From: a virus
Taxonomy: Duplodnaviria > Caudoviricetes
IMG/VR virus record: IMGVR_UViG_2884622180_000001
Location: 3,013 to 67,012 of that record
Strand: one strand, 5' to 3'
Length of the DNA: 64,000 nt
A program made the position numbers and the translations under genes. Positions within the stretch are counted from its first letter, which is position 1, and every line of letters begins with the position of its first letter. A model generated the notes under the pieces. That model saw nothing but the letters and a program-made list of their open reading frames with translations. It did no database searches and was not told the origin of the DNA. Positions 6,131 to 58,311 of the stretch are shown piece by piece.

Positions 6131-7981
<1,851 letters not shown>

Positions 7982-12130: not shown

Positions 12131-12147
12131 CAATAATACAAAGCAGC

Positions 12148-12594: not shown

Positions 12595-12606
12595 GTTATT
12601 TCTTTT

Positions 12607-12645
12607 AAGGCAGTCGCCAAACAAATGGCGACAGCCTTATACACC
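12607..12645 (+). repeat. Hairpin-containing intergenic repeat (second copy 13127-13165)
   Basis: AAGGCAGTCGCC-N8-GGCGAC(A/T)GCCTT-ATACACC after paralogs 4 and 5. Confidence 0.7.
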
Positions 12646-12678
12646 TGCTAACAAAATTAAACAATAAAACAAAGCAGT

Positions 12679-13116: not shown

Positions 13117-13182
13117 TACATATTCAAAGGCAGTCGCCTGATAAAAGGCGACTGCCTTATACACCGTCTAAAAAATACAACA

Positions 13183-13799: not shown

Positions 13800-14564
13800 T
13801 GTTAGACCACTTGGATACAAAAACGGCGGACGATTCTGCCGCCATTGCTTCTGCGAACCAAGCAATGATCCTATTTTGCAGCTTACTACGTCCTCTATGT
13901 ATTGGCAATGTCTTTTCTTTCTTCCGACGATTGAAAGTAAGACCACACGCTTTCCGTCAAGAAAATACAAAGAAATTACGAACACAGCTCACAAAACAAA
14001 AAAGCATCAAATGATGGACAATATTCATTTGATGTTTTTATTGTACCCGGAGCCGAACAGCAAGACAGAATCCGAAAAGAAGCACAGACTGCGGGTGGAG
14101 TACGGACGGAAACGCCGACGATGACATGACTCGCGGATGAGACGAATGATTTTCTTTTTTCACTAGCCGCTTTTATAAAACTTCCGCCGATAGTTTCTAT
14201 TTTCTCGAAAAGGTGCGCGAGCATCTAAACCTGCGAATGCAACGTGATGACGAAAAAGAACGAGAGCAGAGACGCTGATTAAATAATGCGGATAGAAAGG
14301 GCTATCCGCATTTTGCATAAACTCTATTATTACCGTTCGTTTATTTTGCAATTTCCCAAAAATATTCTATATTTGCATAGAGTTGTTTGATGAATTACAA
14401 AGTGCCGCAGTTCAGCACAGTTACATAGTCGCTAAATCGTTACCGACAACCTCCTCTTTTCTGATTTATACTGTCATTCTGACAGATACACCAAAGTTTT
14501 TATCCTTTGCAAAAGATAACGAATTTTATGACGATTACGGTATATTCCCCGACAAATAATCGCA

Positions 14565-14621
14565 CTACCTCTTCCTCTCGATCTGGATATATCCCGAATA
14601 CTTCACTTCCACATAGGGATT
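14565..14621 (-). pseudogene. Orphan duplicate of the 3' end of the DUF6549 gene
   Basis: Encodes NPYVEVKYSGYIQIERKR* versus NPYVEVKYSEYIRVEKRKRK* at the end of 15330-15947. Confidence 0.75.
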
Positions 14622-14716
14622 AGATCTGGCGGATAGCTATGTTATTATAGAGCGGCTTTTTACAAAAAATAAGGCCGGAGCATTATTCTCTAGCCTTATT
14701 TTGCGAAAAGCTCTAC

Positions 14717-15016
14717 TTATTCCTGCAACAATTTCGTATGGGACATATCCTGTACGATAACACCTTGTTCCGTTCGCTCATAAGCCAACACCCAGTGCTT
14801 TTCAAATACAGCACAACGATAGCCTAACGCACACCATTTTCTGAATCGGCACAAAGGATGATCCACTTCAACTCCGAATGACTGAATATATGCCAAAAAC
14901 CTGTCCCGGTAAGCTAAGGCAGCCTCTTCAGACAAGCAAAGGTCATTTTTAAGATAGGCGACCAACTCGCCTAATTTATCCACTACCAGCGCAGATACGA
15001 TGATATTGCGACTCAT
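14717..15016 (-). CDS. RelE/ParE-like toxin
   Basis: 99 aa; GYRCAVFEKHWVLAYE pattern; coupled downstream of a small gene. Confidence 0.6.
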   Translation of the reverse strand: MSRNIIVSALVVDKLGELVAYLKNDLCLSEEAALAYRDRFLAYIQSFGVEVDHPLCRFRKWCALGYRCAVFEKHWVLAYERTEQGVIVQDMSHTKLLQE

Positions 15017-18267: not shown

Positions 18268-18782
18268 TGTCCGATGATTTGCATGAGTCGGTCGGCCCCT
18301 TCGAGGAACTCCGCCTCGGTGTTGTTATTCCCCAGCACCACGTCGATCATGGAATAGTCCACCTGACGGCGGTGGCTGTCGCGCTCGATACGCTCGGCAT
18401 CGACGCCCCGCGCGGGCAGGTTCTCCGCCCGGCAGGAGACATAGACGGCGAAGACGTCGTACTCCGCTCCGACCGTCTGTTTGAGGGCGCGGATGCCGTT
18501 CTCGTCCACCACGTAGGTGCAGTAACCTGACGCAGGGAGCTGGCTCTTCCGGGAGAAGTATTCGTGTTTCCCGAAACGGGTGTAGGTCAGCATCGCTTCC
18601 CGGCTGATCCCGCGGGTACTGCTTACGAAGAAATAATCCTCGCCTTCCCGCTCGTCCGGACGCCGCGGGCGCGTGGTGGTCGATACGATGGCGGGAATGC
18701 CGTATTTACGTTGCAGGTACTTCGACAGTGTGGTCTTGCCGGAACCCGAAGCACCCGCGATGGCAATGATTACTGGTTTCAC
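18249..18782 (-). CDS. gmk: Guanylate kinase-like nucleotide kinase
   Basis: GASGSGKTT P-loop; STTTRPRRPDEREGEDYFFV signature. Confidence 0.8.
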   Translation of the reverse strand: MKPVIIAIAGASGSGKTTLSKYLQRKYGIPAIVSTTTRPRRPDEREGEDYFFVSSTRGISREAMLTYTRFGKHEYFSRKSQLPASGYCTYVVDENGIRALKQTVGAEYDVFAVYVSCRAENLPARGVDAERIERDSHRRQVDYSMIDVVLGNNNTEAEFLEGADRLMQIIGQWQHLR

Positions 18783-20950: not shown

Positions 20951-22656
20951 GGTCGTTGTCGGTCTATTTCAAACAGTAAATCGCGGTTGTCGAACAGAAT
21001 ATCGTCCCCTTCCTGAAGCTCGTCGGCATAGATCTCCATCTGCTCTCCGCCGCGGCGAACCATCAGCCGGGCGTCGCGATCCAGCAGGATTTCGCGCCCG
21101 TTCTCCAATCCGATACGGTAGCAGTCCCGCGAGTCGATGCGTCCCACGACACGCGTCGTGCGGGCCGCATACAATCCGGCACGTTCGGGCAGCAGGAAAC
21201 GCTCGAACAGCAGGCCGTATTTCACAGGGTCGATCAGCGTGATGCCAAGCAGGTACAGGGCCAGAGAGCCGCCCGCCGAGCCGCGGCCGCAGCCTACGAG
21301 GATGCCGTTGCGGCGGGCCCAGTTCACGGTGTCGTACTGGACCAGCAGGTAGTCGATATTGTCCGTCGATTCGAGGATGTAGATCTCCTTGTCGAGCCGC
21401 TCCCGATACTCGGCCTCCCGGCCCGCAGGGACCAATTTCTGAAACCCCTCTTCGAGCAGGGAAAGGAACATCGTATGCGTATCGCCGTACTTCGCTTGCT
21501 CGTCCGGCGTCATGTCGTAGCGCGGCATGAAGACGGCATCCGTCCGGTAAGCCGCCTCGGCCCCTTGGGCGATCGCGACCGTATGGCGGCACATCCGCCG
21601 GAACAATTCGTCCACATCCCAGCGTGCGGGATCGAACAGCGGCCGCAGCTTGTCCAGAAGCTCCCCGGCCGAGCGCAGGTACTGCTCGTCGCTCTGCTCG
21701 TGCGCGGCACCCGTGGCGATCTTGTTCAATACGATCTTGCTGCGGGCGTCGGCGTGGTCGATGTAGTAGCACTCCGGGATCAGTACCGGTTCCACCTCGA
21801 ACACGCCATTCTTGCTGAACTCGTGGAAGTATCGCCGCATACTCTCCAGCCGCTGTACATCGATGCGGTCGGCCTTGAACTCCGTCGGGTCGATCTGGTA
21901 AAAGAGGGATTCGAAGGCTTTGCGCAGCCGCCCGACAGCCGGGCGGTTCTGTGCCATCCATGCCGTTGCGAGCGTTCCCAGCACGAGGACATTGCCGCGT
22001 CCGTGGGCCGCGAGATTCTCCATGTCGATCCTGCCGTCCTCGCGGTCCACCATCACCGCTTTCTGGATGCGCAGCAGGTTTTGCAATCCCTGTTGGCTCT
22101 GGCAGTAGACCTTCATTGGGACTTCCGTGCCGTCGTCATCCAGCGTGAGCGAATAGCCGAAGACGTGTTTGATTCCGGATTTGGCGCACTCTTTCTGGAA
22201 CGCCAGCGTCCCGGCCATCGTATTGCGGTCGCAGAGACCGAGGGCCGTATGGCCCATCCATTTTGCCTTTCGGACCCACGCCTCGATATCGCCCGAGGCG
22301 TTGAGCAGTTCGTAGGAAGTGTGGACGCCCAGATTGACGAACTCCACGTTGCACCCGTCGGGCCTCGGCCGGCCGATATGCCGCAGGATATTCAGGGAAA
22401 ACTCCCCGCGCAGGTCGTAGCAGTACCAGTTGTCGCCGAAGGGAAAGGCGACGTGAAAGATACCCTCGTCGATAAGCGTCTGCGGGTCTTCCATCAGGTT
22501 GAAGACCTGCTCGTCGCCCCGCTGGCGGAAGATGCTTTTTACCCCGGATAGATCGGCACGGAACAGCCGCCCGAAATCCGGAATATCGACCACCTCGCCG
22601 TCTACGACACGGTAGTCAATGTTTTGGCTGTCGAGCCATCGGGTTAGATCGTTCAT
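20947..22656 (-). CDS. dnaE: DNA polymerase III alpha, N-terminal part (PHP domain to FERFLLPER)
   Basis: VHTSYELL, LCDRNTMAG, GCGRGSAGGSL, LLFERFLLPER motifs; ATGA overlap with the C-part. Confidence 0.9.
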   Translation of the reverse strand: MNDLTRWLDSQNIDYRVVDGEVVDIPDFGRLFRADLSGVKSIFRQRGDEQVFNLMEDPQTLIDEGIFHVAFPFGDNWYCYDLRGEFSLNILRHIGRPRPDGCNVEFVNLGVHTSYELLNASGDIEAWVRKAKWMGHTALGLCDRNTMAGTLAFQKECAKSGIKHVFGYSLTLDDDGTEVPMKVYCQSQQGLQNLLRIQKAVMVDREDGRIDMENLAAHGRGNVLVLGTLATAWMAQNRPAVGRLRKAFESLFYQIDPTEFKADRIDVQRLESMRRYFHEFSKNGVFEVEPVLIPECYYIDHADARSKIVLNKIATGAAHEQSDEQYLRSAGELLDKLRPLFDPARWDVDELFRRMCRHTVAIAQGAEAAYRTDAVFMPRYDMTPDEQAKYGDTHTMFLSLLEEGFQKLVPAGREAEYRERLDKEIYILESTDNIDYLLVQYDTVNWARRNGILVGCGRGSAGGSLALYLLGITLIDPVKYGLLFERFLLPERAGLYAARTTRVVGRIDSRDCYRIGLENGREILLDRDARLMVRRGGEQMEIYADELQEGDDILFDNRDLLFEIDRQRP

Positions 22657-23943: not shown

Positions 23944-24273
23944 TCAACTTAACGCTTGCTCATTGCCTGCAATATACAGTTTGGCATCGACATCGAGCGC
24001 CTTGAAGACTTTGAAAATAGTAGCGACAGTCAGGTTATGCCCGTTCTCAATGCGCGAAATCTGGGCTTTCTTCACGCCGATCATGCGCCCCAAATCCTCC
24101 TGCGTTAGATTGCGCTTCTCACGAATTTCCCGAATCGTCTGACCGATTGAAAACAGTTCGACAGTCAGGTCGTAGGCATCGCGTCGGGCCGTGCCCTTTT
24201 CTCCAACCAGCGTATCGACCGTTTCATCGTGGGTGTATATTCGTTTTTGTGCCATATCCGGAAACTCAACCAT
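23944..24273 (-). CDS. XRE-family HTH protein (HigA-like)
   Basis: IREIREKRNLTQEDLGRMIGVKKAQISRIENG. Confidence 0.85.
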   Translation of the reverse strand: MVEFPDMAQKRIYTHDETVDTLVGEKGTARRDAYDLTVELFSIGQTIREIREKRNLTQEDLGRMIGVKKAQISRIENGHNLTVATIFKVFKALDVDAKLYIAGNEQALS

Positions 24274-25363
24274 TCGGATTATCGATTTTAATCACCCAGA
24301 AACCGTTTCTTTTGCCGTTCCTGCGCTCGATGATGCCTTTCGCGGCGAGATTGACGGTGATGGTTTTGATCGTTCTCTCGGATTTGCCTACATGCGCGGC
24401 GATCTCTTTTTGCGTTGCTTTAGGTTGTTCCCGTAAGTAGTTCAGTACGGCTATCTCCTCCAAAGTGCAATTCAAAGTGCAAATATTGCACTTTGAATCT
24501 TCAGCCTTGGATGTGGCAGTGCTTCGGGTATTCTGTGCGGAAGATTCCCCTACGAGCATCGTCCGGTTTTTCAGTTCATTGTGCTCAGACAGGATCAGAT
24601 TCCTGAAAAACGTTTCGATATATTCGGTAGTAGCGTAAATGCCTTTGCTCAGGTTGTTGTAGTTGGCACGCACCAGCGCATTGCGAAAATACCATGAATG
24701 GTCGGCGAAAGCCCCGTTGTCGATATCGAACCCGAATGTCCGCAGATACTTGATCGCGAATACGGCCGTCGTACGGGTGTTGCCTTCGCCGAAAGCGTGG
24801 ATTTGCCAGATTCCGGAGATGAATTTTGCGATGTGGGTGATCGCATCGTTTATGTTCAGCTCCTTATAGCTGAAATTCTTTTCCTGTCCGAAATCGTAGT
24901 CGAGGGTTTCGCGTATGCTGTCTGCACTGGCATAGAGGACGGTTTCGCCCCTCAGCACCCACTCCTTTTTGGTGATGTTGTAATCCCTGATCTTTCCGGC
25001 AAACTTATAGATGCCCTGAAACAGTCTGCGGTGGATGGTAATGTATTCGACGGGTGAGAAGGTAAAGGTTTTCTCAGACAGTATCTCGGCGATTCTTGCC
25101 GAGACCTTGTCGGCTTCCTCCGTTCTGTCTCCGATGTCGGCTCTGACGGTCTTGGTCTGGTAGTAGCTGTCGATAAGCTGTTTGGCCTCTTCGATAGTAA
25201 TGTCGCCCTCGATGTGCTGGCGCGCCGTTCGGAGCAGATATTCCGAAGGTTTCAAATCATCGACCGCTTGCAGACCGATCGCGGTTTGCCATGCGTAGCC
25301 CTTTTCTCTTTGCTGAGGTTCGCCTTGTCTTATGTACTCTTCAAAATCATTCATTACCACCAA
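24266..25363 (-). CDS. Fic-domain protein with N-terminal VbhA-like segment and C-terminal HTH
   Basis: HAFGEGNTRT Fic motif; TATCTTTG -7 box at 25451-25458 on the minus strand. Confidence 0.85.
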   Translation of the reverse strand: MVVMNDFEEYIRQGEPQQREKGYAWQTAIGLQAVDDLKPSEYLLRTARQHIEGDITIEEAKQLIDSYYQTKTVRADIGDRTEEADKVSARIAEILSEKTFTFSPVEYITIHRRLFQGIYKFAGKIRDYNITKKEWVLRGETVLYASADSIRETLDYDFGQEKNFSYKELNINDAITHIAKFISGIWQIHAFGEGNTRTTAVFAIKYLRTFGFDIDNGAFADHSWYFRNALVRANYNNLSKGIYATTEYIETFFRNLILSEHNELKNRTMLVGESSAQNTRSTATSKAEDSKCNICTLNCTLEEIAVLNYLREQPKATQKEIAAHVGKSERTIKTITVNLAAKGIIERRNGKRNGFWVIKIDNPNG

Positions 25364-38833: not shown

Positions 38834-39904
38834 TCAATTATTCATACCGCCGGAATGCCATGGCGGCGTCGGATCGGGATCAGGTTCTGGTTCTGGTTCG
38901 GGTTCCGGCTCAGGTTCCGGTTCCGGTTCTGGCTCAGGGTCTGGTTCCGGGTCGGGTTCCGGCAGCGGCGCGACGGGTTCGTACTCGTACAGCACCCCGT
39001 CCACGAAAAAGCGCCACGGCCCCCCTTCGTTCCATGCCTCTTCATGTGTCAACAGCCACACGGCCTCCATGCCGCAGGTAAGCACATAGTTCAGATCCCC
39101 GTCCCGCACCGGCTCGCGGTACTCGCCCGACGGCCTCCCCGGCAGCAGCACCTCGCAGGCACGGCGTCCGTAGTGCTCCTCCACAAGGGCGATCAGCCAC
39201 CCGTCGAGTGCCTGTCGCGGGACGTCCATGTCCGTCATGTCGAGGCGCATCAGGGAGCGGCACTCCACCAATGGATGCAGGTCTTCGGCTTTCGCACCCC
39301 GCAGGTCCAAAGCGTACAATCCTTCCACAAGGGGCAGGAACTCCAGCGGTGCATGGCAATTCCGAAAGGTCAGTTCCTCGATGTGCAGCGGAGAGAAGAG
39401 CCGCACGGTATCGGGTGCGAGGCCCGTAAGATCGGCCGCCTGCAACACGAAGTCGCCGTACAGACGCACCGTGCGTCTTCCGGAGATCATACTGTCGAAC
39501 GAATGCGCCAGCGCCGAGGGCCGATCCGTAAGCATGACGGCCTGCAGGGCGGAGTTGTCGCCCCAGTCGATCTCTATCGTCCCGCTGCCCGCAAGGGACA
39601 GGGAGGCCGAGACCGCTGCGGCCGGCAGGCAGAACTCCGCGCGGCGCGCGAGCCCGGTTTCCTTAAAATAGACATGCCGCTCCCCGCCTGCGGGCGTGAT
39701 GCCCTCGCGGTGCAGGTAGGCCACGGTATCGGCGTCGATCAGGTAGTCGTCCGAATAATCCAATACATCGCCGGAATGTAAACGCGCAGCCATCGAGAGC
39801 TGAGGGTTGCAGATCAGAAGATCCGTGATCCCCTCGATCGACCCGTAGATGCCGAGCGCCACGTCGTAGAGGTTTTGTCCCGTTATGACTGTATATTTAC
39901 CCAT
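38834..39904 (-). CDS. LysM/gpX-like baseplate protein with C-terminal extension and (PE/PD)n tract
   Basis: YTVITGQNLYDVALGIYGSIEG...LL..NP is a LysM-like start. Confidence 0.6.
   Translation of the reverse strand: MGKYTVITGQNLYDVALGIYGSIEGITDLLICNPQLSMAARLHSGDVLDYSDDYLIDADTVAYLHREGITPAGGERHVYFKETGLARRAEFCLPAAAVSASLSLAGSGTIEIDWGDNSALQAVMLTDRPSALAHSFDSMISGRRTVRLYGDFVLQAADLTGLAPDTVRLFSPLHIEELTFRNCHAPLEFLPLVEGLYALDLRGAKAEDLHPLVECRSLMRLDMTDMDVPRQALDGWLIALVEEHYGRRACEVLLPGRPSGEYREPVRDGDLNYVLTCGMEAVWLLTHEEAWNEGGPWRFFVDGVLYEYEPVAPLPEPDPEPDPEPEPEPEPEPEPEPEPEPDPDPTPPWHSGGMNN
38866..38965 (-). repeat. Pro-Glu/Asp dipeptide tandem repeat
   Basis: PLPEPDPEPDPEPEPEPEPEPEPEPEPEPDPDPTP, encoded by degenerate 6-bp units. 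Confidence 0.9.
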
Positions 39905-40577
39905 CTTTTTCGGTTACGTCGAGCAGCAGTTCGCCCGTCTCGGAGTTCATGAATGCGTCGTTGATCGTCATGCGGTCGTTCTCGAACTCGGACTGCAGCC
40001 GCGCGGCAAGGCCCGTGTTCTCGAAATTTCCGTGCAGGAAATCGACGAGGCCCACACCCGTTGTCGGGTGCTGGTAGAGCGTCCCTGCGGCGGCTTTCAG
40101 CAGAAAGACCTCGTTCTGGCGCAGGGCCGCGCCGATGGGAAGGTCGGTGTCCGTGCCGCCGTAAAGGTGCAGCTCCCCGCCGCAGCGCACCAGACGGAAC
40201 AGGCCCTCCGCATCCGCCGTCCCGAACTCCGAGAGACGGATCGGGCCACCGGTACGGTCGCGCACCGTGAACCAGACCGTATTGTCGGCAGGATTTATCA
40301 GGCAGTGCTCGCCGCCTACGGAGGTCGTGACCCGGAAGCGCACCTTCAGCTCCCGATACACGGCCGTATAGGGTATCCGCACATGAAGACTTTCGACCTG
40401 CGCGAAACGCTCTCCGAAGCGTTCCGGCACGGCAATCTGTCCGTACGCATAACGCTCGTTATCCAACCCTTCCATACGGCCCAGCAGCATGAAGTCGTAG
40501 ACGGTTCGGCCTACTGGGTTATCCACCGTCTGCAGCTCGCCGTAGTCGGTATCGATGAGTATGTCCTGCCGTGCCAT
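39897..40577 (-). CDS. gp25/GPW-like baseplate protein (sheath initiator) with insertion
   Basis: MARQDILID...QNEVFLLKA..G.LYQHPTTGVG...LQSEF pattern. Confidence 0.55.
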   Translation of the reverse strand: MARQDILIDTDYGELQTVDNPVGRTVYDFMLLGRMEGLDNERYAYGQIAVPERFGERFAQVESLHVRIPYTAVYRELKVRFRVTTSVGGEHCLINPADNTVWFTVRDRTGGPIRLSEFGTADAEGLFRLVRCGGELHLYGGTDTDLPIGAALRQNEVFLLKAAAGTLYQHPTTGVGLVDFLHGNFENTGLAARLQSEFENDRMTINDAFMNSETGELLLDVTEKDG

Positions 40578-40606
40578 ATCCGCCGTCGTAGAGATTCTCG
40601 TCGCTA

Positions 40607-40615
40607 AAGGATAGG
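40607..40615 (-). promoter_or_regulatory. Candidate phage promoter motif CCTATCCTT
   Basis: About 30 nt upstream of the baseplate operon start at 40577. Confidence 0.45.
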
Positions 40616-40725
40616 CCGCCCCATGGGCGAGGGTTTACCCTTCGGACGTGCAGCGGTGCGAGGAATTCTACTCACGGGGAGGAAGTGTTTCTTCGCAAAT
40701 TATTGTTATCATGAGGAGAATTTAA

Positions 40726-40733
40726 TACCTTTG
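40726..40733 (+). promoter_or_regulatory. sigmaA -7 box TACCTTTG for the Fic/pAgo cargo
   Basis: TAnnTTTG about 30 nt upstream of ATG 40765. Confidence 0.55.
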
Positions 40734-40764
40734 TGAGGAGAAAAACAGATAAATCAATCTATAT

Positions 40765-41802
40765 ATGACACATGACCGATCGAACCTCATTACCGAATAT
40801 GTAAGGACACATCCTGCATCATCCTCGACGGAAATATTCGAAGGGACCGGACGTATCGCAGCCTATGCCACGATAGGGCGCGATCTGGCAAAGTTGGTAT
40901 CCAACGGCGTATTGTCTGTAACAGGCAAAGGCAAGGCGAGCCGTTATTCGCTGTCGCCCGTATACGAATTGTCACAGCCGGTCGATCTGGACGTATATTT
41001 CAGCCGTGAGATCGACCAAAGGCAAATACACGACGGATATAATTTCTCCCTGATCGAAACGCTGGCGTCCGTACCTCTGTTTACGGAAGCCGAATCACAG
41101 CGGCTCGCAGCGCAGCAGGCCCTGTTTGCAGACAACATATCGAAACTCACATCGGCCGGATACCGAAAGGAAATGGAACGGCTGGGTGTGGACCTGAGCT
41201 GGAAATCGTCCCAGATAGAGGGCAACACCTATTCATTGCTCGAGACCGAGAGGCTGCTGCTGGAAAAAGAGACGGCGGCGGGAAAAAGCAAGGAAGAGGC
41301 CGTGATGCTGCTCAATCACAAGGAAGCCCTCGATTTCATTCTCGACAATCCCGATTACCTGTCGGAACTCACGATGGCCAAGATCGAGACCATCCACTCG
41401 ATTCTGGTTAAAGAACTGGACGTGGACTGCAATATCCGTACACGCCGTGTCGGTATTACGGGAACGAACTACCGTCCGCTGGACAACGAATTTCAGATCA
41501 GGGAGGCATTGGAGCAGACCTGCCGTCTGGTAAACGGCAGGTCGTCCGTATTCGAGCGGGCGCTGCTTATCCTCCTGCTGCTATCCTACATCCAGCCGTT
41601 CAATGACGGGAACAAACGTACGGCGCGCATCGTAAGCAATGCCTCCCTGATCGCCGAGGGCTATTGTCCGCTCTCGTTCCGAACGGTGGATTCGATAGAT
41701 TACAAGAAGGCCATGTTGCTGTTCTACGAACAGAACAATATTTCAGCCTTCAAACAGATCTTTATCGAGCAGTTCATATTTGCTGTTAAAACTTACTTCT
41801 GA
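40765..41802 (+). CDS. Fic family protein with N-terminal HTH
   Basis: SSQIEGN inhibitory motif; QPFNDGNKRTAR Fic motif with Gln in place of the canonical His. Confidence 0.85.
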   Translation: MTHDRSNLITEYVRTHPASSSTEIFEGTGRIAAYATIGRDLAKLVSNGVLSVTGKGKASRYSLSPVYELSQPVDLDVYFSREIDQRQIHDGYNFSLIETLASVPLFTEAESQRLAAQQALFADNISKLTSAGYRKEMERLGVDLSWKSSQIEGNTYSLLETERLLLEKETAAGKSKEEAVMLLNHKEALDFILDNPDYLSELTMAKIETIHSILVKELDVDCNIRTRRVGITGTNYRPLDNEFQIREALEQTCRLVNGRSSVFERALLILLLLSYIQPFNDGNKRTARIVSNASLIAEGYCPLSFRTVDSIDYKKAMLLFYEQNNISAFKQIFIEQFIFAVKTYF

Positions 41803-41899
41803 TTCATGATGCTCTCCGACACGATTCGTAGCTCATCAAAAAGTTGACACTGAATGGTATAAAAACAGAGATATAGTTATATAAGATATCAATAGACTG

Positions 41900-43288
41900 A
41901 TGATTACATCTCAACTTAAAATATTCGTCAGCAGCACTATTTTCGATATGCCCAATGAGCGGCAAGCTGCATTTGAGGCCCTCAGAAATATGGGGGCCAT
42001 ACCCATCATGTCGGAATATACGATGGAGGCGGTAAGCGTCGATTCCGTTACTGCCTGCCTGAATAAAGTAAAAGAATCCGATATATATATTCTGATTGTC
42101 GGCGGTCGTTATGGCTGGCAGCCTTATGGCAAAGAATCCATAACCGAATTAGAGTATAATACCGCTCTTGAAAATAAATTGCCGATTATCGTATTCAACA
42201 CTACGTATCATAAAGAGGATGCTCAGGAACAATTTTTCAAAAAGGTAGAGTCGAAATATTTTCGGAAGACGGTTCAGAATGCGTTTGAACTGAAAGATGA
42301 GATTGAAAAATCGGTTAAATCCGAAATAGAAAAACGACGGGAACAATTTTTTAATAAGCAAGAATTCATATACACCAGTCTTGTTGAAATTCAATTTCCA
42401 AAAACATTGTTTATCGCGAATTTAAGTGTCAATAAAAAAGAGATAAATGAGTATAATAGAGAACGTAAACGTTATAAGAAAAAACCGTCGCTTTTCGATT
42501 ATGCGGTGTCTGCATTGCATATGAAAGATATAAGTTTTCCGAGAGATTGGATAATTGATGGAAAATCACTTATAACCTTTCATAATTTGCACGATACGTC
42601 AATGCCTCTTCGAGAGATTATCGATGCTGGTACCATAGAGGAAATTGGCTGCGATGAGTTTTATACGCTTTCCAATAAGAATGAGGCCACGTTTAGATAC
42701 TTGTTACGACGATGTTTTGAAACAAAAGTTCATAAGGAAAAAATCAAATGGATCAAAACAGCAGGATTATTCGCGTTTATTCCTATAGATAAAGATGCCA
42801 ATGGCAACTGGTGTGCAAGGTGTATCAGTTGGCAAAAGACTAAGAAAAAAGCTACGCGAACCGTGGTCGATCCGAAACCGGATCTAAAAGACAGAAGTAA
42901 AATATTTAATCTTAAATGTTTGGCATTCAGGGTGAAATTTGAATTTCTCAATACAAAATGGTATTTGAATTTGAAGCCAGACTGGATTTTCCTGTGGAAC
43001 GACCTAACCGAATGTACTCTGGCGTTCGAGAAGGTACAATACCTGAAGCGTGTTGAACGAAACGTTATCATATTCAATCACTTTAACTTCATACTCAGTC
43101 AGTTACAACCTTCGACTTCGAATAAACTTTTCCCGGAGATGAATGATTATCCTTTCTTAATTTTAGGATCGATCTTGAAGTTCGAATTCTCTCCGGTAGT
43201 TAATGACGATATCTGGGTCAATCTCGAAGATGGCAAACAGCGGGAAAAGTTGACGGATAAAGAAGGCAATGTCAATTTATTCAGTTAA
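41900..43288 (+). CDS. DUF4062-APAZ fusion; partner/effector of the short pAgo
   Basis: N-term KIFVSST..D...ER...DIYILIVGGRYG...SITELEY..A is DUF4062; C-term resembles APAZ (LITFHNL, AFRVKF...WYLNLKPDW, LKRVERN); 3 bp upstream of the pAgo. Confidence 0.75.
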   Translation: MITSQLKIFVSSTIFDMPNERQAAFEALRNMGAIPIMSEYTMEAVSVDSVTACLNKVKESDIYILIVGGRYGWQPYGKESITELEYNTALENKLPIIVFNTTYHKEDAQEQFFKKVESKYFRKTVQNAFELKDEIEKSVKSEIEKRREQFFNKQEFIYTSLVEIQFPKTLFIANLSVNKKEINEYNRERKRYKKKPSLFDYAVSALHMKDISFPRDWIIDGKSLITFHNLHDTSMPLREIIDAGTIEEIGCDEFYTLSNKNEATFRYLLRRCFETKVHKEKIKWIKTAGLFAFIPIDKDANGNWCARCISWQKTKKKATRTVVDPKPDLKDRSKIFNLKCLAFRVKFEFLNTKWYLNLKPDWIFLWNDLTECTLAFEKVQYLKRVERNVIIFNHFNFILSQLQPSTSNKLFPEMNDYPFLILGSILKFEFSPVVNDDIWVNLEDGKQREKLTDKEGNVNLFS

Positions 43289-43291
43289 ACT

Positions 43292-44716
43292 ATGAAAGCA
43301 GAATATATAGAGGAGCCGTTATTGATATTCGGTACAGATAAATGTATTTGTCCTCGCGAGGGGATAACTTCATTTAAAGTTTACGATACGGTTGAACCGG
43401 CCCGAAAAGATCAACTGTCCTTGGGGATTGTCGGCATCGAGGAAGATATCGAAGTTTTTAAAGGATGGCTGAAAAGATTCGAATCCTTTATCCCGTCTGC
43501 GACTTCCAGAAGGCAAAAAGGATTGTTCAAGTCGTTTCCGGGATTTAACAAAGATCATGGATTCTGCGCTCAGTTCGTATATGGCTCTAATTATGAAAGA
43601 TTTCTGTCGAATAACGATATTGACAGTGTATTAAAAACCGGTACATACGAAGAGAAAGTATCGTCAGCCGTCGAGCTGTTCGCCAATAATATACAGTTTT
43701 TGTCGGATATAAAAAATTGTGATGTTGTAATATGCATAATTCCAAAAGTTTTTGAAGGCAAAATTGTCAAAGAAGATATAAATGACGAGCCTGTTGAAAC
43801 TACTGCGGAAGATGTCGCCTGCGCAGAAAAAGAACTGAATTTCCGGAGGGCATTAAAAGCGAGGGCTATGCGGTACAATACTCCCATCCAGTTGATCCGG
43901 GAGTATATCCTGCATGACAACAAAAAATCTCAGGATGCTGCGACAAAAGCATGGAACCTGTGTACGGCCCTTTACTATAAGGGGCTACAAACTATCCCGT
44001 GGAAACTGGACATTGATGAAAACAGGCCCAAGGCATGCTATATCGGAATCGGATTTTACAGGAGCAGGGACAAACAAACTATACAAACGAGTTTGGCACA
44101 AATATTTAACGAAAACGGGAAAGGCGTAATATTGAGAGGAACTCCGGTTTTAGAAGATAAAGACGACAGAATACCTCATTTGACTTATGAGCAATCTTGT
44201 TCCTTGCTCAAGGACGCTTTGAGTAAATATAAATTCGCAACGGGAATCATGCCCGGCAGGATTGTTTTACACAAGACTTCGAAATATTATGAAGATGAAT
44301 TGGATGGATTTGAAAAAGCCTTGCAAGAACTTCAGATAAGCGAGTATGATATTGTGACGGTAATGGAAACAGATATAAGGTTTTTCCGCAACGGCCTTTA
44401 TCCTCCTGTTAGGGGTGCATTGTTTACTCTGGAAGAAAACAGATATATCTTATATACTAGAGGCTCTGTACACCAGTATGAAACCTATCCGGGAATGTAT
44501 ATCCCCTCGCCTCTGGAGATCAGAATCGTTAAGAAATCCTCTTCATATAAAACAATATGCAGGGAAATATTGGGCCTGACAAAAATGAACTGGAACAATA
44601 CTCAATTCGACAACAAATACCCCATTACGATAGGATGCGCCCGAAAAGTAGGAGAGATTATGAAATACCTTAATGATCAAGAGATTCCTAAGGAATCTTA
44701 TGCTTATTATATGTAA
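43292..44716 (+). CDS. Short prokaryotic Argonaute (MID-PIWI, catalytically inactive)
   Basis: YIEEPLLIF start, FPGF, LKARAM..NTPIQ, ALYYKG..IPWKL, CYIGIGF, YTRGSV, EILGLTKMNWN...PITI..ARKVGEI; catalytic Asp positions replaced. Confidence 0.92.
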   Translation: MKAEYIEEPLLIFGTDKCICPREGITSFKVYDTVEPARKDQLSLGIVGIEEDIEVFKGWLKRFESFIPSATSRRQKGLFKSFPGFNKDHGFCAQFVYGSNYERFLSNNDIDSVLKTGTYEEKVSSAVELFANNIQFLSDIKNCDVVICIIPKVFEGKIVKEDINDEPVETTAEDVACAEKELNFRRALKARAMRYNTPIQLIREYILHDNKKSQDAATKAWNLCTALYYKGLQTIPWKLDIDENRPKACYIGIGFYRSRDKQTIQTSLAQIFNENGKGVILRGTPVLEDKDDRIPHLTYEQSCSLLKDALSKYKFATGIMPGRIVLHKTSKYYEDELDGFEKALQELQISEYDIVTVMETDIRFFRNGLYPPVRGALFTLEENRYILYTRGSVHQYETYPGMYIPSPLEIRIVKKSSSYKTICREILGLTKMNWNNTQFDNKYPITIGCARKVGEIMKYLNDQEIPKESYAYYM

Positions 44717-45008
44717 ATTCATATTATGGCAGTCCGGTGTGGCTGAGTACACATTAATGCCGGAATTTCATTCATAAGGTTCCGAATATTGCCATGGTGT
44801 TATGCTCTGCTATTTCATGTAGACCGCACGGAGGAATCGTTTACCGTATGTATGTCGTCGGAATACTTTCCCCGTATATCTTCAAAATCCGATCTGTTTC
44901 CACCTTATCGGCCCGACTTTCACGGCCATGGCGAACAGACCGGGATTTCATCGGTTCTATGCTGTCATTGATCGAGTTTATACTTTTTCAATTCGGAGCA
45001 AAGTCAAG

Positions 45009-45056
45009 GAATATAATCAGGTGTTTGCAAAAAGTTGCAAACACCTGATTATATTC
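45009..45056. repeat. Perfect 22-bp inverted repeat with a 4-nt loop
   Basis: GAATATAATCAGGTGTTTGCAA-aaag-TTGCAAACACCTGATTATATTC upstream of the ATPase gene. Confidence 0.85.
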
Positions 45057-45107
45057 ATGGAAAAAAGTTGTATATTTACGCCATTGTATGTGGAAAAATA
45101 TTGAGAT

Positions 45108-46406
45108 ATGCTCGACCGGAAAATCATAAACAAACTGAAAGAGTGGAAAATATCGACAAACCGGAAGGCTCTGTTGATCAAAGGGGCGAGACAGGTCGGT
45201 AAAACGACCAGCATCCGACATTTCGGAAAAGAGAACTATAAAAATTACATCGAAATCAATTTCGAAAAAACGCCTCTCGCACGTCAGGCATTCTCCGGTA
45301 ACCTCGATGCAAAAACCATTATTCTGAACCTTTCGGCTATGGGATACGGCCCGTTCGAAAAGGGAGAAACGCTGGTGTTCTTCGATGAGATTCAAAGTTG
45401 CCCCGAGGCACGTACCTCCATTAAATTTCTGGTCGAAGACGGCTCTTACGACTATATCGAATCGGGATCGCTGCTCGGAATCAATTACAAGGAGGTGTCC
45501 TCCTATCCGGTAGGTTTCGAGGAGCAGATCGATATGTTCCCCTTGGATTTCGAAGAATTCCTATGGGCGGGTGGCGTTTCGCGTGATGTAATCGCCCTGC
45601 TTCGGCAGGCGTATGAAACGGTTACACCCCTTCCGGACTTTCTGCATGAACAGATCATGACGCATTTCCGACAATTTTTAATCGTCGGGGGGATGCCCGA
45701 AGCGGTAATGACGTTCCTTGCAAACGATGATATCACAAAAACCTTAAAGGTACAAGCCGCGCTTCTAGATGGTTACCGAAACGATATTGCCAAATATGCC
45801 GGAAGCGAGAAACACCTTGCAAAAAAAGTATTCGATGCGATCCCCGAACAATTATGCAAGAAGGATAAGCGGTTCATTTTGGCCAGTCTGGAAAAAGGGG
45901 CGTCACAACGCAAATACGGAGATGCGACAGAATGGCTCGTTGATGCGGGGATCGCCTATTTCTCATTCAATGTCGGAGCATTCGAGTTGCCTTTCTCGTT
46001 TTCAGAGAAGCGCAACCTTTACAAACTCTTCATGCTCGACACGGGACTTTTAAGCAGTATGAGCCTCAAGAATATGCAGTTTCAGGTATTGAACGGAGAG
46101 ATCGATATCAATGAAGGGGCGCTGACCGAGAATTATGTGGCGACGGAGTTGATCAAGAGAGGTATCGGACTGAATTATTATGACAAGAAAAGCAAGCAGG
46201 AACTCGATTTTATTTTTCTCGATGAAAATGTGATTTCCATTATCGAGGTCAAATCAGGAGATAATTACCGACGTCATGCGTCGTTGGATGCCGCAATTGA
46301 TGCTTATGAAGACAAGATCGGCCGGGCCATGGTATTCAGCAAATTCAACGTAGAAAAAACTGCGAATGCAATCTATTATCCGCTTTATATGACAATGTTT
46401 TTATGA
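45108..46406 (+). CDS. AAA+ ATPase with DUF4143-type C-terminal domain
   Basis: GARQVGKT, FFDEIQ, SGSLLG, VGGMPE, KLFMLDTGL, ELDF...IIEVKSG. Confidence 0.85.
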   Translation: MLDRKIINKLKEWKISTNRKALLIKGARQVGKTTSIRHFGKENYKNYIEINFEKTPLARQAFSGNLDAKTIILNLSAMGYGPFEKGETLVFFDEIQSCPEARTSIKFLVEDGSYDYIESGSLLGINYKEVSSYPVGFEEQIDMFPLDFEEFLWAGGVSRDVIALLRQAYETVTPLPDFLHEQIMTHFRQFLIVGGMPEAVMTFLANDDITKTLKVQAALLDGYRNDIAKYAGSEKHLAKKVFDAIPEQLCKKDKRFILASLEKGASQRKYGDATEWLVDAGIAYFSFNVGAFELPFSFSEKRNLYKLFMLDTGLLSSMSLKNMQFQVLNGEIDINEGALTENYVATELIKRGIGLNYYDKKSKQELDFIFLDENVISIIEVKSGDNYRRHASLDAAIDAYEDKIGRAMVFSKFNVEKTANAIYYPLYMTMFL

Positions 46407-46600
46407 AAGGGCACAAAATCACACAGCAGGACTACCTCAAGGCCCACCGCAAGGCGAGCCGCGAGGAGGAGATCGCGCACCACGGCAAGCCCGTCGGGCT
46501 GCGGCCGAAGACGCACCGCTCCAAGAAAACGTATAACCGCAAAAAGGAAAAGACAGGAATCCGCAAGATCCTGCCTTTCTCTTTACCCGTCGCAGCGTAA
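46403..46600 (+). CDS. Small basic hypothetical protein
   Basis: 65 aa; ATGA overlap with the ATPase. Confidence 0.5.
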   Translation: MKGHKITQQDYLKAHRKASREEEIAHHGKPVGLRPKTHRSKKTYNRKKEKTGIRKILPFSLPVAA

Positions 46601-46603
46601 GTA

Positions 46604-46927
46604 TTACAATTCCTGACACGCATCGAAAATCCGCTCGACCGTTCCCCACATATCGTCCGGAAGGGTCTGCTCCGAAAGCCGTTCGCAGGAACTCTTCAGG
46701 AGTTCCAGCTCCTCGCGCGAGAACTCTACCGCCAGCGGGGTCTCCTTCTCAGTATTCCACTCGATACGCCCCGTCTCCTCGACGCGGTGCAGGCCGAGCT
46801 CCTCGCGCTCGGCGTCCGTGATGGCGACCTTCTGCAGGATGCCTTGCTTGATGTTGAACTCCTTATAGGTTCCCTTGTCGGGCAGGAGCGCCGGCAGGTA
46901 GAGCCGGTCTTTAAGTATCAGTTCCAT
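46604..46927 (-). CDS. Phage protein downstream of the tail fibre (possible chaperone)
   Basis: 107-aa ORF ending the fibre operon. Confidence 0.55.
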   Translation of the reverse strand: MELILKDRLYLPALLPDKGTYKEFNIKQGILQKVAITDAEREELGLHRVEETGRIEWNTEKETPLAVEFSREELELLKSSCERLSEQTLPDDMWGTVERIFDACQEL

Positions 46928-55118: not shown

Positions 55119-56023
55119 TTCGTAAAGGAAGTTTGGGAGAGGAAATTCTGTATCTTGGAGATCAGCGGCGCGAAGTTAGGGGCATTCACCGCCGGCATCG
55201 TACCCATCAGCGTAGGGGTCATAATTTTCGTGCATTCGGTAATAAATTCCATCATGAGCTGCGCGAGCTGCCGGCCGAGGACCATGGGTTCGGTGGCATC
55301 CTCGGCCCCGAGGGTGATCTTCTCTCCCGTGACGGTCACGGCCTGCTCGCCGACCTTCGTTTCGGCCTTGTCAGCCGAAAGGTTGAACTCGCCCCGGTCG
55401 GCTTTCAGGGCGATCGTCTCGGCATCCTGTGTGAGGGCCGTTTCCTTGCCGGCATCGCTTTTGACCTTCGAGGCGATCCCCTCGGACGTATAGTGTGTCG
55501 AGGCTTCGTTGCCCGTAGGTTCCAGTTCGTCATAGTCGGGCGTCGAGTCGCTCGACGTATCCAGTTGCTCGGTCTCACGGACGCCCACCGTGACCGTCGT
55601 GTGGGCGCTGAGCTGGATCAGATCCGCATGCGAGAAGTTCACGACGTACATCGCGCGCGTGGCGGCGTCCGAGACGATCGTAACGTCCGAGAGCAGTGTC
55701 GGGACGATGAGAAAGCCGCCGCTGTTGTCCTGCGTGCCGGCCAGCAGTACGCCTTTGTGGATGATCGGCTCCGTGGAGGCCGTCTCGTCGGGGTATTCGC
55801 CCACGTCGATCGTGCCGCCGTACCGGGCGAACTCCGCATCCGCGGGGTCGTCATGGATCTTGGCCACGTAGCCGTGGATCAGGCGTGCCGTACCTACGCC
55901 GCCCGTACCCCCGGGCGACATGTCCACACGGTCGATGCTCCGCCCCAGAGCGATGCGGCGGATCGCTTCGCGGATCAGGTGCTGGCTGCCGGAGCTATTG
56001 AGGGTTTTATTTTCCGTTTCCAT
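55115..56023 (-). CDS. Baseplate spike / gpV-like protein
   Basis: N-terminal OB-like region, beta-helical C-terminus, ITLGAEDATEPMVLGRQL ending. Confidence 0.5.
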   Translation of the reverse strand: METENKTLNSSGSQHLIREAIRRIALGRSIDRVDMSPGGTGGVGTARLIHGYVAKIHDDPADAEFARYGGTIDVGEYPDETASTEPIIHKGVLLAGTQDNSGGFLIVPTLLSDVTIVSDAATRAMYVVNFSHADLIQLSAHTTVTVGVRETEQLDTSSDSTPDYDELEPTGNEASTHYTSEGIASKVKSDAGKETALTQDAETIALKADRGEFNLSADKAETKVGEQAVTVTGEKITLGAEDATEPMVLGRQLAQLMMEFITECTKIMTPTLMGTMPAVNAPNFAPLISKIQNFLSQTSFTK

Positions 56024-56261
56024 TCCTTACAGGTATTTAGTAAGAAATAGGAGGAATCGGAGCGGAGCGGTGAATCCGCTTATGAAAAGAGCCGGAAGGG
56101 ATTTTGCGTCGAGTTGATGCAACGACAGATCATCCGTTTAGGCTATTACTGGAAACGGCGTATGCCGATCAACCGACGAATTCCTGAGTTAAATTACTTT
56201 TAGATATATTGGTTTGCCCGAATTTTGCGTTATCTTTGTAATAAGAGAAATGGAGGAAACT

Positions 56262-56486
56262 ATGAATCAGATCATCATAACCCCGAAATCCGAACAGGAG
56301 CATTCGTTCGTGATGGAGATGCTCAAGCGGATGAAGATCAAGGCCACGTCCATAGAGGAGAAGCCTTTGCGCCGTATGACGGTCGAAGAGTATCGTGCGA
56401 TGGCAGAGAGAGCTATTGCTGATGCGGAGGCGGGCCGCACGATATCGCAATCCGAAATGGAAAAACGCGTTGCATCGTGGCGGTAA
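56262..56486 (+). CDS. Antitoxin (ParD-like)
   Basis: RAIADAEAGRTISQSEM motif; overlaps the toxin; TATCTTTG -7 box at 56231-56238. Confidence 0.65.
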   Translation: MNQIIITPKSEQEHSFVMEMLKRMKIKATSIEEKPLRRMTVEEYRAMAERAIADAEAGRTISQSEMEKRVASWR

Positions 56487-56788
56487 TCGTCGAATGGTCG
56501 GAGCAGGCCGCTTCGAGTTTGGAGGAGATCTTTGGCTACCACAAAGAGGTGGCCGGGTTGAGAGTTGCGCGAAAGATCGCAACGAAAATTACGCAGCGCA
56601 CACAAATTCTTTCGGACAATCCCCTTATCGGACAGCGGGAAGAATTACTGAAAGACTTATCGGTCGAGTTCAGGTATCTTGTCGAGGGGAACTATAAAAT
56701 TCTCTATTATACACTGCCGGAAAAGGTCGTCATTTCTCTTGTTTTCGATTGTCGTCAGAACCCTGAAAAGATGCGGGATATAAAATAA
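56477..56788 (+). CDS. RelE/ParE family toxin
   Basis: VEWSEQA...LEEIFGY...LSDNPLIG...FRYLVEGNYKILY...VFDCRQNP. Confidence 0.85.
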   Translation: MAVIVEWSEQAASSLEEIFGYHKEVAGLRVARKIATKITQRTQILSDNPLIGQREELLKDLSVEFRYLVEGNYKILYYTLPEKVVISLVFDCRQNPEKMRDIK

Positions 56789-56818
56789 CGACTATATCGT
56801 GGTTCTTATCACAAATAG

Positions 56819-56845
56819 AACGTGCAAACTATTGCACGTTTTTTT
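56819..56845 (+). terminator. Intrinsic terminator
   Basis: AACGTGCAA-acta-TTGCACGTT-TTTTT. Confidence 0.75.
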
Positions 56846-56952
56846 ATGCTTGGGAATTTACATAAGAGCGACACCTCCGGCAATAAAATGAAATTTGTCG
56901 ACAAATTTATTGGAGTGTTGAAACGGATTAAAAACAGCCTGTTTCCGCTATG

Positions 56953-58311
56953 TTATGCCCCTTTCTTCCTATCCCCATAAGTTTCCTTCCTGCCCCGTAT
57001 TTTGTATGGTAAGGTCAACCTTTGGCGGTACCCGCCCGTTCCGAATGTCGTCGTGACCTCTTCGACTAAATAGACTCCGTTCTTCGAAGGATTGCGCTCG
57101 TCGATAAGCTCTACCTGACAGGCGGGTGCGAGGGCGTGGTCGCCGAAGATCGTCAGGTGGCCCGTGATGCCGTTCAGGTTGTATCCACGGAAGTATTCGA
57201 TGGCCTCCTCGACGAGTTTATCGGAGGTAATACGCATATTGGTCGAAGTGTACGGCACGACCGTATAGCTCGAAAGATCGACCTTCGTGCGCGTCGCGGC
57301 CCCTGCGGCCGTAGTGTTGCCCGTGAGCTTGTGCGTCTTCTTCGAAATCTGCGTGGCGTTGACCGTCTGGAACTCCTTGCTCTGGGGGTTCGAGGGGTCG
57401 TAGTCGGGATTCAGGCGCACGGTCACCTCGAAGAATTTCTCGTCCGTACCCAGCGCCTTGGCCTGCACGGCCAGAAAGCGCGGGTCGGTACGCAGCACCT
57501 TCAGGTCGTTGCTCGCCACATGCCGGTCGAAGCGGATCGGGAACGGCGCCGGGTCGTCGTTCGGAAACTGCGGCTGGCTGGCCGAAGAGGAGTACGGACG
57601 TCCCACGGCGATCGTCGGCATCGCATCTTCCGAGGCGCTGTCGTACTTCAAAAAGCAGTAGACGCGGTAGCGGCTCCATGAGTTCAGCACGTCGGCCACG
57701 GTAAAGTTGTCCGTAACCTTGATCTTGCCGATCTCGATGTCGAAGCGGCGGGTCTGGCTGTGGAGCGTAAAGCCCGTGTCTTTCAGCAGGCCGTACTTGT
57801 CTCCCAGCACGTCGTTTACCTTCGTGCCTTCCACGGGCGTCTCGAACTTGGGCGCCGTCTTGAGTTTGAGCTTGTAGGCCAAATTCTCGCACTCGATTTC
57901 GAACCGGCTGTCGGAGTTGTAGGCCGTGATATAGCCGTCGAACATGTTCTTGAGCGCCCCGTTGTATCCTAACTTGATATTGATGCGCTGACCGACCTTG
58001 AAAGTCTTGTCGTCGAGGGCCGCCTGCCCGGTACGCTTCTCAACGAGCACGCCGTCCTGCATGATCTCCGTCGTCAGGCGCGAGGCGTCCACGCCCTCGG
58101 CCGTCACAGAGCCGATGATCGTGCTTTTATAGACCGTGCCCTTGGGGAAGGTCAGCTTGGCCGTGCCGATGAGCTCCTTGTAAGATTCGGTAATCTGGAT
58201 CTCCTGCACCTCCGTAAGCTCGATGCCGTTGCGGATGACAATGGGGTTCGACGGGTCGGCGTCGCCGATGGTGATGCGGCATGAGAGTATGTCCAAACCG
58301 TTCAGAGCCAT
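56953..58311 (-). CDS. Baseplate hub / late control D-like protein
   Basis: IQITESYKELIGTAKLTFP, INIKLGYNG...MFDGYI, GVYLVEEVTTTFG.GGYRQ. Confidence 0.65.
   Translation of the reverse strand: MALNGLDILSCRITIGDADPSNPIVIRNGIELTEVQEIQITESYKELIGTAKLTFPKGTVYKSTIIGSVTAEGVDASRLTTEIMQDGVLVEKRTGQAALDDKTFKVGQRINIKLGYNGALKNMFDGYITAYNSDSRFEIECENLAYKLKLKTAPKFETPVEGTKVNDVLGDKYGLLKDTGFTLHSQTRRFDIEIGKIKVTDNFTVADVLNSWSRYRVYCFLKYDSASEDAMPTIAVGRPYSSSASQPQFPNDDPAPFPIRFDRHVASNDLKVLRTDPRFLAVQAKALGTDEKFFEVTVRLNPDYDPSNPQSKEFQTVNATQISKKTHKLTGNTTAAGAATRTKVDLSSYTVVPYTSTNMRITSDKLVEEAIEYFRGYNLNGITGHLTIFGDHALAPACQVELIDERNPSKNGVYLVEEVTTTFGTGGYRQRLTLPYKIRGRKETYGDRKKGA

Follow-up and report, generated by a model that had tools for sequence, protein, structure and literature searches.

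What does a short prokaryotic Argonaute (pAgo) command when its partner carries a DUF4062 domain in place of the known effector heads, and what could such a pair do for a phage? The question is raised by a stretch of viral DNA of 64,000 nucleotides (Duplodnaviria; Caudoviricetes), hereafter the window, which covers positions 3,013 to 67,012 of IMG/VR record IMGVR_UViG_2884622180_000001, a 67-kb entry labelled provirus and estimated to be ~60% complete. The lowest-GC stretch of the window (36–42% GC versus ~60% in the backbone) holds two adjoining genes, one for a DUF4062-APAZ protein, referred to here as the partner, and one for a short pAgo. We consider it likely that they make up a self-contained two-gene immune system of the S2B group of short Argonautes, in which a non-cutting pAgo would be coupled through APAZ to a DUF4062 NADase and would answer guide-triggered recognition with NAD+ loss, protecting the lysogen.

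The Argonaute resembles those of SPARDA and SPARHA

A sequence-only reading of this locus had described a 474-residue pAgo located 3 bp downstream of a 462-residue gene. Both open reading frames (ORFs) were found where it had placed them (Table 1); the partner gene ends in TAA, and three nucleotides (ACT) separate this stop codon from the ATG of the pAgo gene. The pAgo matched the PADLOC model pAgo_I (PDLC02376) over its full length with an E value of 1e-175. In a phmmer search of the PDB, the best-scoring Argonautes of solved structure were those of the Eae, Xau, and Nba SPARDA systems (482–485 residues; E = 6e-77 to 5e-69; 262–236 bits), which aligned with residues 2–461. They were followed by the SPARHA Argonaute (E = 1.6e-57; 198 bits), by the SPARTA Argonautes (E = 2.6e-39 to 7e-35; 138–124 bits), for which the alignment covered the C-terminal two thirds only, and by the 8in8 "Piwi domain protein" chain (E = 4e-23; 85 bits). 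The end-to-end alignment with the SPARDA short pAgos is in agreement with the earlier description of a protein consisting of MID and PIWI only. DREN and HNH short-pAgo systems belong to clade S2B (PMC9097488; PMC12738770). Because its nearest solved relatives are the SPARDA and SPARHA Argonautes, which the literature places in this clade, we assign the protein by sequence to the S2B-type short pAgos with MID and PIWI domains, an assignment drawn from how the Argonautes of solved structure rank by bit score.

The pAgo is predicted to be catalytically inactive. The motifs YIGIGF and LHKTS, in which the sequence-only reading had noted the loss of the catalytic aspartates, are present and align with FLGIGF and VLKTS of inactive SPARDA Argonautes. 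Gly-254 stands at the GxDV position and Lys-328, Thr-329, and Ser-330 at the RDG position; the Eae and Xau SPARDA Argonautes, published as inactive, carry identical substitutions in this comparison, which covers two of the four DEDX positions. In the MID domain, Asn-183, Gln-214, and Asn-222 are the equivalents of XauAgo Asn-179, Gln-222, and Asn-230, through which that protein recognises a guide RNA by its 5'-AU (bioRxiv 10.1101/2025.04.08.647717). All three were invariant in 29 of 29 orthologues, across which the mean column identity of the pAgo is 89%.

The partner joins a DUF4062 head to an APAZ tail

The N terminus of the partner had been read as DUF4062, and Pfam agrees. DUF4062 matched residues 7–89 over profile positions 1–82 of 82, with an E value of 7.4e-25 and 87.4 bits compared with a gathering cut-off of 24.7. 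It was the only family found; Pfam searches up to E = 0.1 returned no TIR, SIR2, or nuclease family in the partner, and there was no Pfam match to DUF4365, SMEK, or HNH. An AlphaFold2 model of the whole protein, built from 33 homologues, shows a five-strand β/α domain (residues 7–125), a long helix (residues 128–151), and an α/β domain (residues 160 to ~370), whereas the C-terminal ~90 residues have no confident placement in the monomer and appear disordered in the profile of the predicted local distance difference test (pLDDT). The folded DUF4062 domain extends to approximately residue 127, followed by the long helix at residues 128–154. A separate AlphaFold2 model of residues 1–155 gave a five-strand β/α fold with a pLDDT of 85 and a predicted template modelling (TM) score of 0.84. 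The Foldseek neighbours of this model were the CMP N-glycosidase MilB (TM score 0.66), nucleoside 2-deoxyribosyltransferases (NDTs), and DNPH1, and they also included the TIR domains of RPS4, SARM1, and TIR-STING. By sequence, residues 4–125 of the head resemble the solved DUF4062 domain of KpSwz (PDB entry 10wc; E = 2.8e-8); no NDT or MilB chain among the PDB chains searched gave a sequence match.

A conserved glutamate, Glu85 in the motif SITELEY, had been singled out from the sequence. We found it invariant in 33 of 33 full-length homologues and in 30 of 30 N-domains, including those of actinobacterial DUF4062 proteins without APAZ. It aligns with the alanine of the KpSwz E97A structure; this mutant was used for entry 10wc, Glu97 being the catalytic residue (bioRxiv 10.64898/2026.05.01.722283).

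For the C-terminal part, residues 215–441 matched the DREN-APAZ chain 9jsb_D in a phmmer search (E = 3.7e-10), and the matches to SPARDA partner chains are confined to these residues, i.e. to the APAZ part. The fold of the C-terminal domain resembles the APAZ chains of SPARDA (Foldseek E = 5e-14 to 1e-11), SPARTA (2e-10 to 1e-7), and SPARHA (1e-8), and whole-length Foldseek alignments to TIR-APAZ chains span 413–459 columns. The sequence match and the Foldseek hits uphold the proposed APAZ-like C terminus. Together, sequence and model indicate a partner composed of DUF4062, a helical linker, and then APAZ, with a head that is not a canonical TIR. The expectation of a distinct effector, as opposed to an ordinary SPARTA, was likewise borne out, with DUF4062 the sole Pfam family and a pAgo closer to SPARDA and SPARHA.

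PADLOC v2 hidden Markov models match both proteins over their full length. The model matching the partner, PDLC02415, is named "Aga_REase-PNTD1-PNTD2". It covers the DUF4062 head as well as APAZ (protein residues 2–454 on profile positions 10–421), and therefore its restriction-endonuclease label seems wrong for at least this subgroup.

DUF4062-APAZ and pAgo form a conserved unit

One check suggested by the sequence-only reading was a search for other DUF4062-APAZ and pAgo pairs. A search of 90%-identity clusters returned 182 relatives of the partner at E ≤ 0.001; the best 120 of these are mostly 461–466 residues long and all carry PF13271. With one genome taken per GTDB species, we obtained 36 partner loci, mostly from Bacteroidota and also from Kapabacteria and Ignavibacteria. 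At 34 of them a pAgo with 57–77% identity begins 2–5 nt downstream of the partner; the two exceptions are one contig end and one truncated partner. Full-length DUF4062-APAZ proteins fall into at least seven separate clusters (50%-identity representatives), and each of the three divergent loci examined (30–40% identity) continues with a pAgo at 40–58% identity. These divergent loci lie amid restriction, GmrSD, Thoeris-TIR, and HEPN genes, that is, in defence islands. No third neighbour gene is shared across the 34 loci or the divergent relatives. The search thus returned the pairs it was meant to find, and the DUF4062-APAZ gene and the pAgo gene form a unit. At locus L035 (positions 6001–7050; Chitinophagaceae), the DUF4062-APAZ match ends at residue 351 and no pAgo comes after it; this copy is probably a degraded form of the system.

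The closest relatives elsewhere match the two-gene cassette only (window 41890–44831), with 91.7% DNA identity to metagenome contigs, at least one of which is labelled human gut. Compared with the gut-metagenome copy, the ratio of nonsynonymous to synonymous substitution rates (dN/dS) was 0.13 for the partner, the same in both domains, and 0.07 for the pAgo; therefore both genes are under purifying selection. The metagenome copy of the cassette adjoins Mfa2, DUF3575, and DUF4906 fimbrial genes, typical of Bacteroidales, and neither a Fic nor an AAA_14 gene was found beside the metagenome copies. The context of the closest relative (locus L041) is not phage-like by PHROGs, except for peptidase and primase-like matches. 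Window positions 44866–44980 resemble (85%) the DNA upstream of an ATPase_2 gene that adjoins the cassette in L041.

Outside the DUF4062 family, the closest relatives of the APAZ part are SMEK_N-APAZ proteins of 490–505 residues (P0133, P0135, P0136); the one SMEK_N-APAZ gene examined (L061, 430–3383) is followed by a 480-residue gene. SMEK is a published but seldom studied nuclease partner of short pAgos (PMC10810196). Because the nearest non-DUF4062 relatives carry SMEK_N heads, the DUF4062 lineage looks, from its sequences, as if the head had been exchanged within the S2B group, whose systems are armed with nucleases.

The cassette lies on a polymorphic island in a phage genome

The window encodes a large terminase, HU, Pol III alpha in two ORFs, an SbcC-like ATPase, and a DnaB-like helicase. 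Its tail genes specify a tape measure, tail fibres, two proteins of the baseplate hub, and a 2354-residue tail protein. Gene after gene, the segment from 15 to 64 kb runs collinear with MT835494.1, a 99.8-kb phage from human faeces, at 45–79% amino acid identity. By tblastx tiles, this collinearity is broken by three gaps, one of which is at 41–46 kb. In MT835494.1, the homologues of the flanking genes at 39897–40577 and 46604–46927, both on the minus strand, are only 96 nt apart.

Metagenome assemblies place both junctions. The whole stretch is present on one 43-kb contig of run X1, which is the probable source of the record and not independent. In run X3, from another study, a 5.1-kb contig spans the left junction (39301–42321, ~95% identical) and an 11.4-kb contig spans the right junction (44697–46927). 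In run X5, positions 40651 and 46415 meet on a 2.3-kb contig, separated by just 62 other letters; this is an empty site, and from this joint we took the bounds of the island as 40652 and 46414. The sequence-only reading had the system carried on a phage, and the flanking phage genes, the collinearity with MT835494.1, the bridging contigs, and the empty site all speak for that claim. The island is truly within the phage genome, and its site is polymorphic, being either filled or empty. A joint in run X4 (40103 to 46638) was discarded, as it rests on only 26 letters.

The carrier, a phage or a prophage, comes from gut samples of animals or humans. We infer a Bacteroidota host from the integrase type and from the closest relatives of the cassette. 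A search of 401 genomes from the order of one Bacteroidales locus found no close relative of the terminase, the matches being at ≤36% identity plus a 78-residue fragment at 56%.

Proposed mechanism and alternative explanations

The idea of DUF4062 as a TIR-like N-glycosidase with NAD+ as its substrate has since gained experimental backing for the domain family from three 2026 preprints. The DUF4062 domains of KpSwz (Swarozyc), PsAvs2, Vulcan, Vesta, and human TEP1 are glutamate-dependent NADases (2026 preprints, including bioRxiv 10.64898/2026.05.01.722283). Those tested need higher-order assembly and cause growth arrest via NAD+ loss, and the reported products are ADP-ribose and nicotinamide (2026 preprint). 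Among short-pAgo systems, SPARTA pairs its TIR heads by forming tetramers, and SPARDA and SPARHA pair their nuclease heads in filaments (PMC12738770; bioRxiv 10.1101/2025.04.08.647717). Because these relatives assemble on their target and DUF4062 NADases need assembly, target recognition should gather the DUF4062 heads and deplete NAD+. For the present system, NAD+ depletion and a role in defence between mobile genetic elements are inferences drawn by analogy.

In the mechanism we propose, the pAgo would pair with the partner through APAZ, and this heterodimer would load small guide RNAs, probably with 5'-AU, as in the closest solved relatives. The loaded complex would bind complementary invader DNA, and duplex binding would drive higher-order assembly into either SPARTA-like tetramers or SPARDA/SPARHA-like filaments. 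Assembly would bring the DUF4062 heads together for Glu85-dependent NAD+ hydrolysis, and the loss of NAD+ would stop growth or kill the cell and block the spread of the invader by abortive infection. On a phage, the lysogen, and hence the prophage, would most likely be shielded from plasmids and competing phages.

Several points weigh against this mechanism. In the searchable literature we found no experimental study of any DUF4062-APAZ/pAgo system, whether biochemical or genetic. If the trigger is foreign DNA that replicates and is strongly transcribed, the system should endanger the phage in its own lytic growth. The temperate nature of the phage is itself uncertain, with a provirus label and tyrosine recombinases at one end of the record and no host flank identified. 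Finally, the best fold neighbours of the head include, besides TIRs, nucleoside deoxyribosyltransferases and a CMP N-glycosidase, and because of this mixture the fold does not fix the substrate. In the main alternative, the same architecture and trigger might serve another N-glycosidic substrate, such as CMP, dNMP, or other nucleotides, as in MilB/BcmB, DNPH1, and the NDTs, and arrest the cell by damage to the nucleotide pool. The top Foldseek neighbours given above (MilB, several NDTs, and DNPH1, besides TIRs) and the Pfam clan of DUF4062, Nribosyltransf according to a 2026 preprint, would fit such an enzyme. We nevertheless regard it as improbable, given that all DUF4062 domains tested so far, from KpSwz to human TEP1, are reported to be NADases and that the closest sequence to the head is KpSwz (E = 3e-8), with no NDT or MilB chain matched.

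Some bacterial and plant TIR domains generate signals, and the fold of the head is TIR-like. The head could make a nucleotide signal, such as the cyclic ADP-ribose isomers of Thoeris TIRs, for a separate effector encoded elsewhere; this would be surprising, however, because no third conserved gene stands next to the pair in the 34 loci or the divergent relatives, and the products reported for DUF4062 are ADP-ribose and nicotinamide. We also give very little credence to the cassette being an inert or decaying passenger, or its link to the phage being an assembly artefact or a host flank. The sharp GC contrast between cassette and backbone, the provirus label of the IMG/VR record, and its completeness of only ~60% would be compatible with that view, but both ORFs are intact, the family-invariant residues are all kept, and dN/dS is 0.07–0.13. 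Moreover, the island is flanked on both sides by phage genes, independent metagenome contigs (~95% identical) span both junctions, and a third sample has the precise empty site.

The guide-triggered NADase that we favour may be taken one step further. An S2B scaffold whose nearest relatives form filaments, re-armed with a DUF4062 NADase, could provide the phage with its own nucleic-acid-guided superinfection exclusion. It would detect competing plasmids and phages in the lysogen and abort them, and self-triggering would be escaped, for example, by a guide-loading bias, by silencing during induction, or by regulation through the adjacent Fic or AAA_14 gene. We put this forward tentatively, as a possibility that is on the whole doubtful; if true, superinfection would be excluded by a guided system that the phage itself owns, and the NADase would be activated in a new way.

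Relation to known systems

The nearest kin of the pAgo and the APAZ described here are SPARDA (Nba, Xau, and Eae; PDB entries 9jsb, 9qbl, and 9qbp), SMEK-APAZ, and SPARHA (HNH-APAZ), all of which are S2B. The likeness to SPARDA and SPARHA extends to the two-gene operon with the partner upstream, and the residues contacting the guide 5'-AU are of the SPARDA type. The heads of SPARDA, SMEK-APAZ, and SPARHA are nucleases, whereas the partner here has a DUF4062 TIR-like head; because this fold replaces the nuclease, the expected output would be NAD+ loss and not DNA degradation. Because SPARDA and SPARHA, the closest systems in both pAgo and APAZ, form filaments, the DUF4062 system could reveal whether filament assembly, in place of the SPARTA tetramer, is able to switch on a TIR-like NADase.

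SPARTA (TIR-APAZ, S2A; PDB entries 8fex, 8ifk, and 8qlo) would by analogy share the same logic, a glutamate-dependent TIR-fold NADase on APAZ that is curbed by a short pAgo. Its head, however, belongs to a TIR family, whereas the head here is Pfam DUF4062, and its pAgos, which align over the C-terminal two thirds only, are much more distant from the present pAgo than those of SPARDA. From these comparisons, it looks as though a TIR-like NADase was acquired independently within S2B. The effector domain and the catalytic glutamate of Swarozyc (KpSwz, PDB entry 10wc), DUF4062-Avs2, Vulcan, Vesta, and Evangelion are homologous to those of the head here. For DUF4062/NIR defence proteins, abortive infection via NAD+ depletion has been reported (2026 preprints). 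These proteins sense phage proteins (portal, terminase, and others) via STAND, HEAT, or other modules, whereas here the sensor would, by analogy, be the guided Argonaute.

Short-pAgo systems on viral or proviral contigs also include SPARSA (SIR2-APAZ, with or without fusion to the pAgo). When 2.9 million IMG/VR contigs were scanned by pattern, SIR2-type short-pAgo systems turned up on three of them (L058, L059, and L060), two with SIR2-APAZ-pAgo fusions of ~1050 residues and one with a SIR2-APAZ and pAgo operon. They differ from the present system in their SIR2 effector, in their clades (S1A/S1B), and in their pAgos, which are just 23–28% identical to the pAgo here. The scan returned no second DUF4062-APAZ, which, in a search limited to the pattern, is no proof of absence. 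Within the limits of such scans, carriage of short pAgos by phages occurs but is rare.

Published lists of short-pAgo effectors name SIR2, TIR, DUF4365/DREN, Mrr/REase, HNH, SMEK, DHS-like, and "additional uncharacterized effectors"; DUF4062 is not named in them (PMC9097488; PMC12738770; PMC10810196). The "DHS-like-APAZ" of Koopal 2022, labelled IPR029035 (SIR2-like NAD/FAD-binding fold), is unlikely to be DUF4062-APAZ. One preprint mentions an association of DUF4062 with short pAgo in a single sentence and reports no experiment on it. Already known, then, are the NADase activity of DUF4062 (2026), this mention, and the PADLOC models for both genes; new are the carriage by a phage, the polymorphic island with its defined bounds, and the connection with cassettes of gut Bacteroidales. 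The short-Argonaute sensor is modular, and to its known heads, SIR2, TIR, DREN, HNH, SMEK, and Schlafen, the locus adds a putative NADase of the DUF4062/NIR type. The natural cassette is well delimited (2.9 kb, two genes, ~180 relatives at 90% clustering) and directly testable, and if it behaved like SPARTA, it would be another candidate for nucleic-acid detection assays. The filled and empty natural sites also pose the question of how a phage carries a suicide system that would be triggered by replicating foreign DNA.

Other features of the island and the window

Table 1. Coordinates of the Argonaute cassette, its domains, and the surrounding island in the window
Feature	Position	Strand	Basis or remark
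Low-GC accessory (defence) island	40652–46414		5763 nt, inserted in phage tail-gene module
Fic gene (SoFic/PDC-S04-like)	40765–41802	+	First gene of island; Pfam Fic E = 1.9e-12; PADLOC SoFic 8.5e-18, PDC-S04 4.4e-18
DUF4062(NIR)-APAZ partner gene	41900–43288	+	462 aa
DUF4062/NIR TIR-like domain core	41918–42166	+	aa 7–89, Pfam PF13271
Glu85 codon	42152–42154	+	Predicted catalytic glutamate, within SITELEY motif
APAZ domain	42377–43285	+	aa ~160–462, phmmer and Foldseek
Short pAgo gene (MID-PIWI)	43292–44716	+	474 aa, predicted catalytically inactive type
MID stretch with N183, Q214, N222	43838–43957	+	Alignment to 9qbl_B
Inverted repeat between pAgo and AAA_14/DUF4143 genes	45004–45061		27 nt, 93% complementary, 4-nt loop
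AAA_14 and DUF4143 ATPase gene	45108–46406	+	Last gene of island; Pfam; PADLOC candidate PDC-S01 E = 1.8e-153

The island consists of four plus-strand genes (Fic, partner, pAgo, and AAA_14/DUF4143) amid tail genes on the minus strand. None of the other loci compared shows a Fic gene linked to the pAgo pair. The inverted repeat downstream of the pAgo gene may be a terminator or an operator; scans of the region for sigma-70 promoters and terminators gave no excess over the shuffled expectation. A TAnnTTTG motif of the Bacteroidetes type lies 5' of the Fic gene and was seen by eye only. Direct or inverted repeats flanking the island, as marks of insertion, amounted to short, chance-level matches. 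To the left of the island, a plus-strand ORF at 39885–40607 with a weak Transposase_mut match was discarded, the overlapping minus-strand ORF at 39897–40577 being a conserved phage gene.

At its low-GC left end (37–40%), the record carries five tyrosine recombinase genes in a row. Three stand in tandem at 394–3657 of the window, and two more lie upstream, at 1–3142 of the record; the latter include a Bacteroidetes-type Arm-DNA-bind_5 integrase, and an HTH_17 excisionase-like gene lies between the two. The array could be a phage integration module or a separate mobile element.

Several other stretches depart from the backbone. A second Fic gene, at 24266–25363 on the minus strand, is fused to a winged-helix domain (MarR/HTH_24) and lies in a small lower-GC stretch without counterpart in MT835494.1. 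The 7 kb at 8000–15000 have 40–45% GC and mostly small plus-strand ORFs, the sole recognised gene being a DUF5675 gene (8050–8484, minus strand); a 540-residue ORF at 9023–10645 matches nothing in Pfam or PHROG and lacks a counterpart in MT835494.1. A short stretch of 45% GC at 56000–57000, between baseplate genes, contains small ORFs only and likewise has no counterpart there. ARAGORN called an unusually long, 87-nt tRNA-Gln(CTG) at 38849–38935 on the plus strand, overlapping the 3' end of a conserved minus-strand phage ORF; it may be a false call. Pol III alpha is encoded by two abutting ORFs at 18779–22656 on the minus strand, one of 568 residues (PHP and the start of the NTPase domain) and one of 722 residues (the rest, with finger and HHH), which would represent either a split gene or a frameshift.

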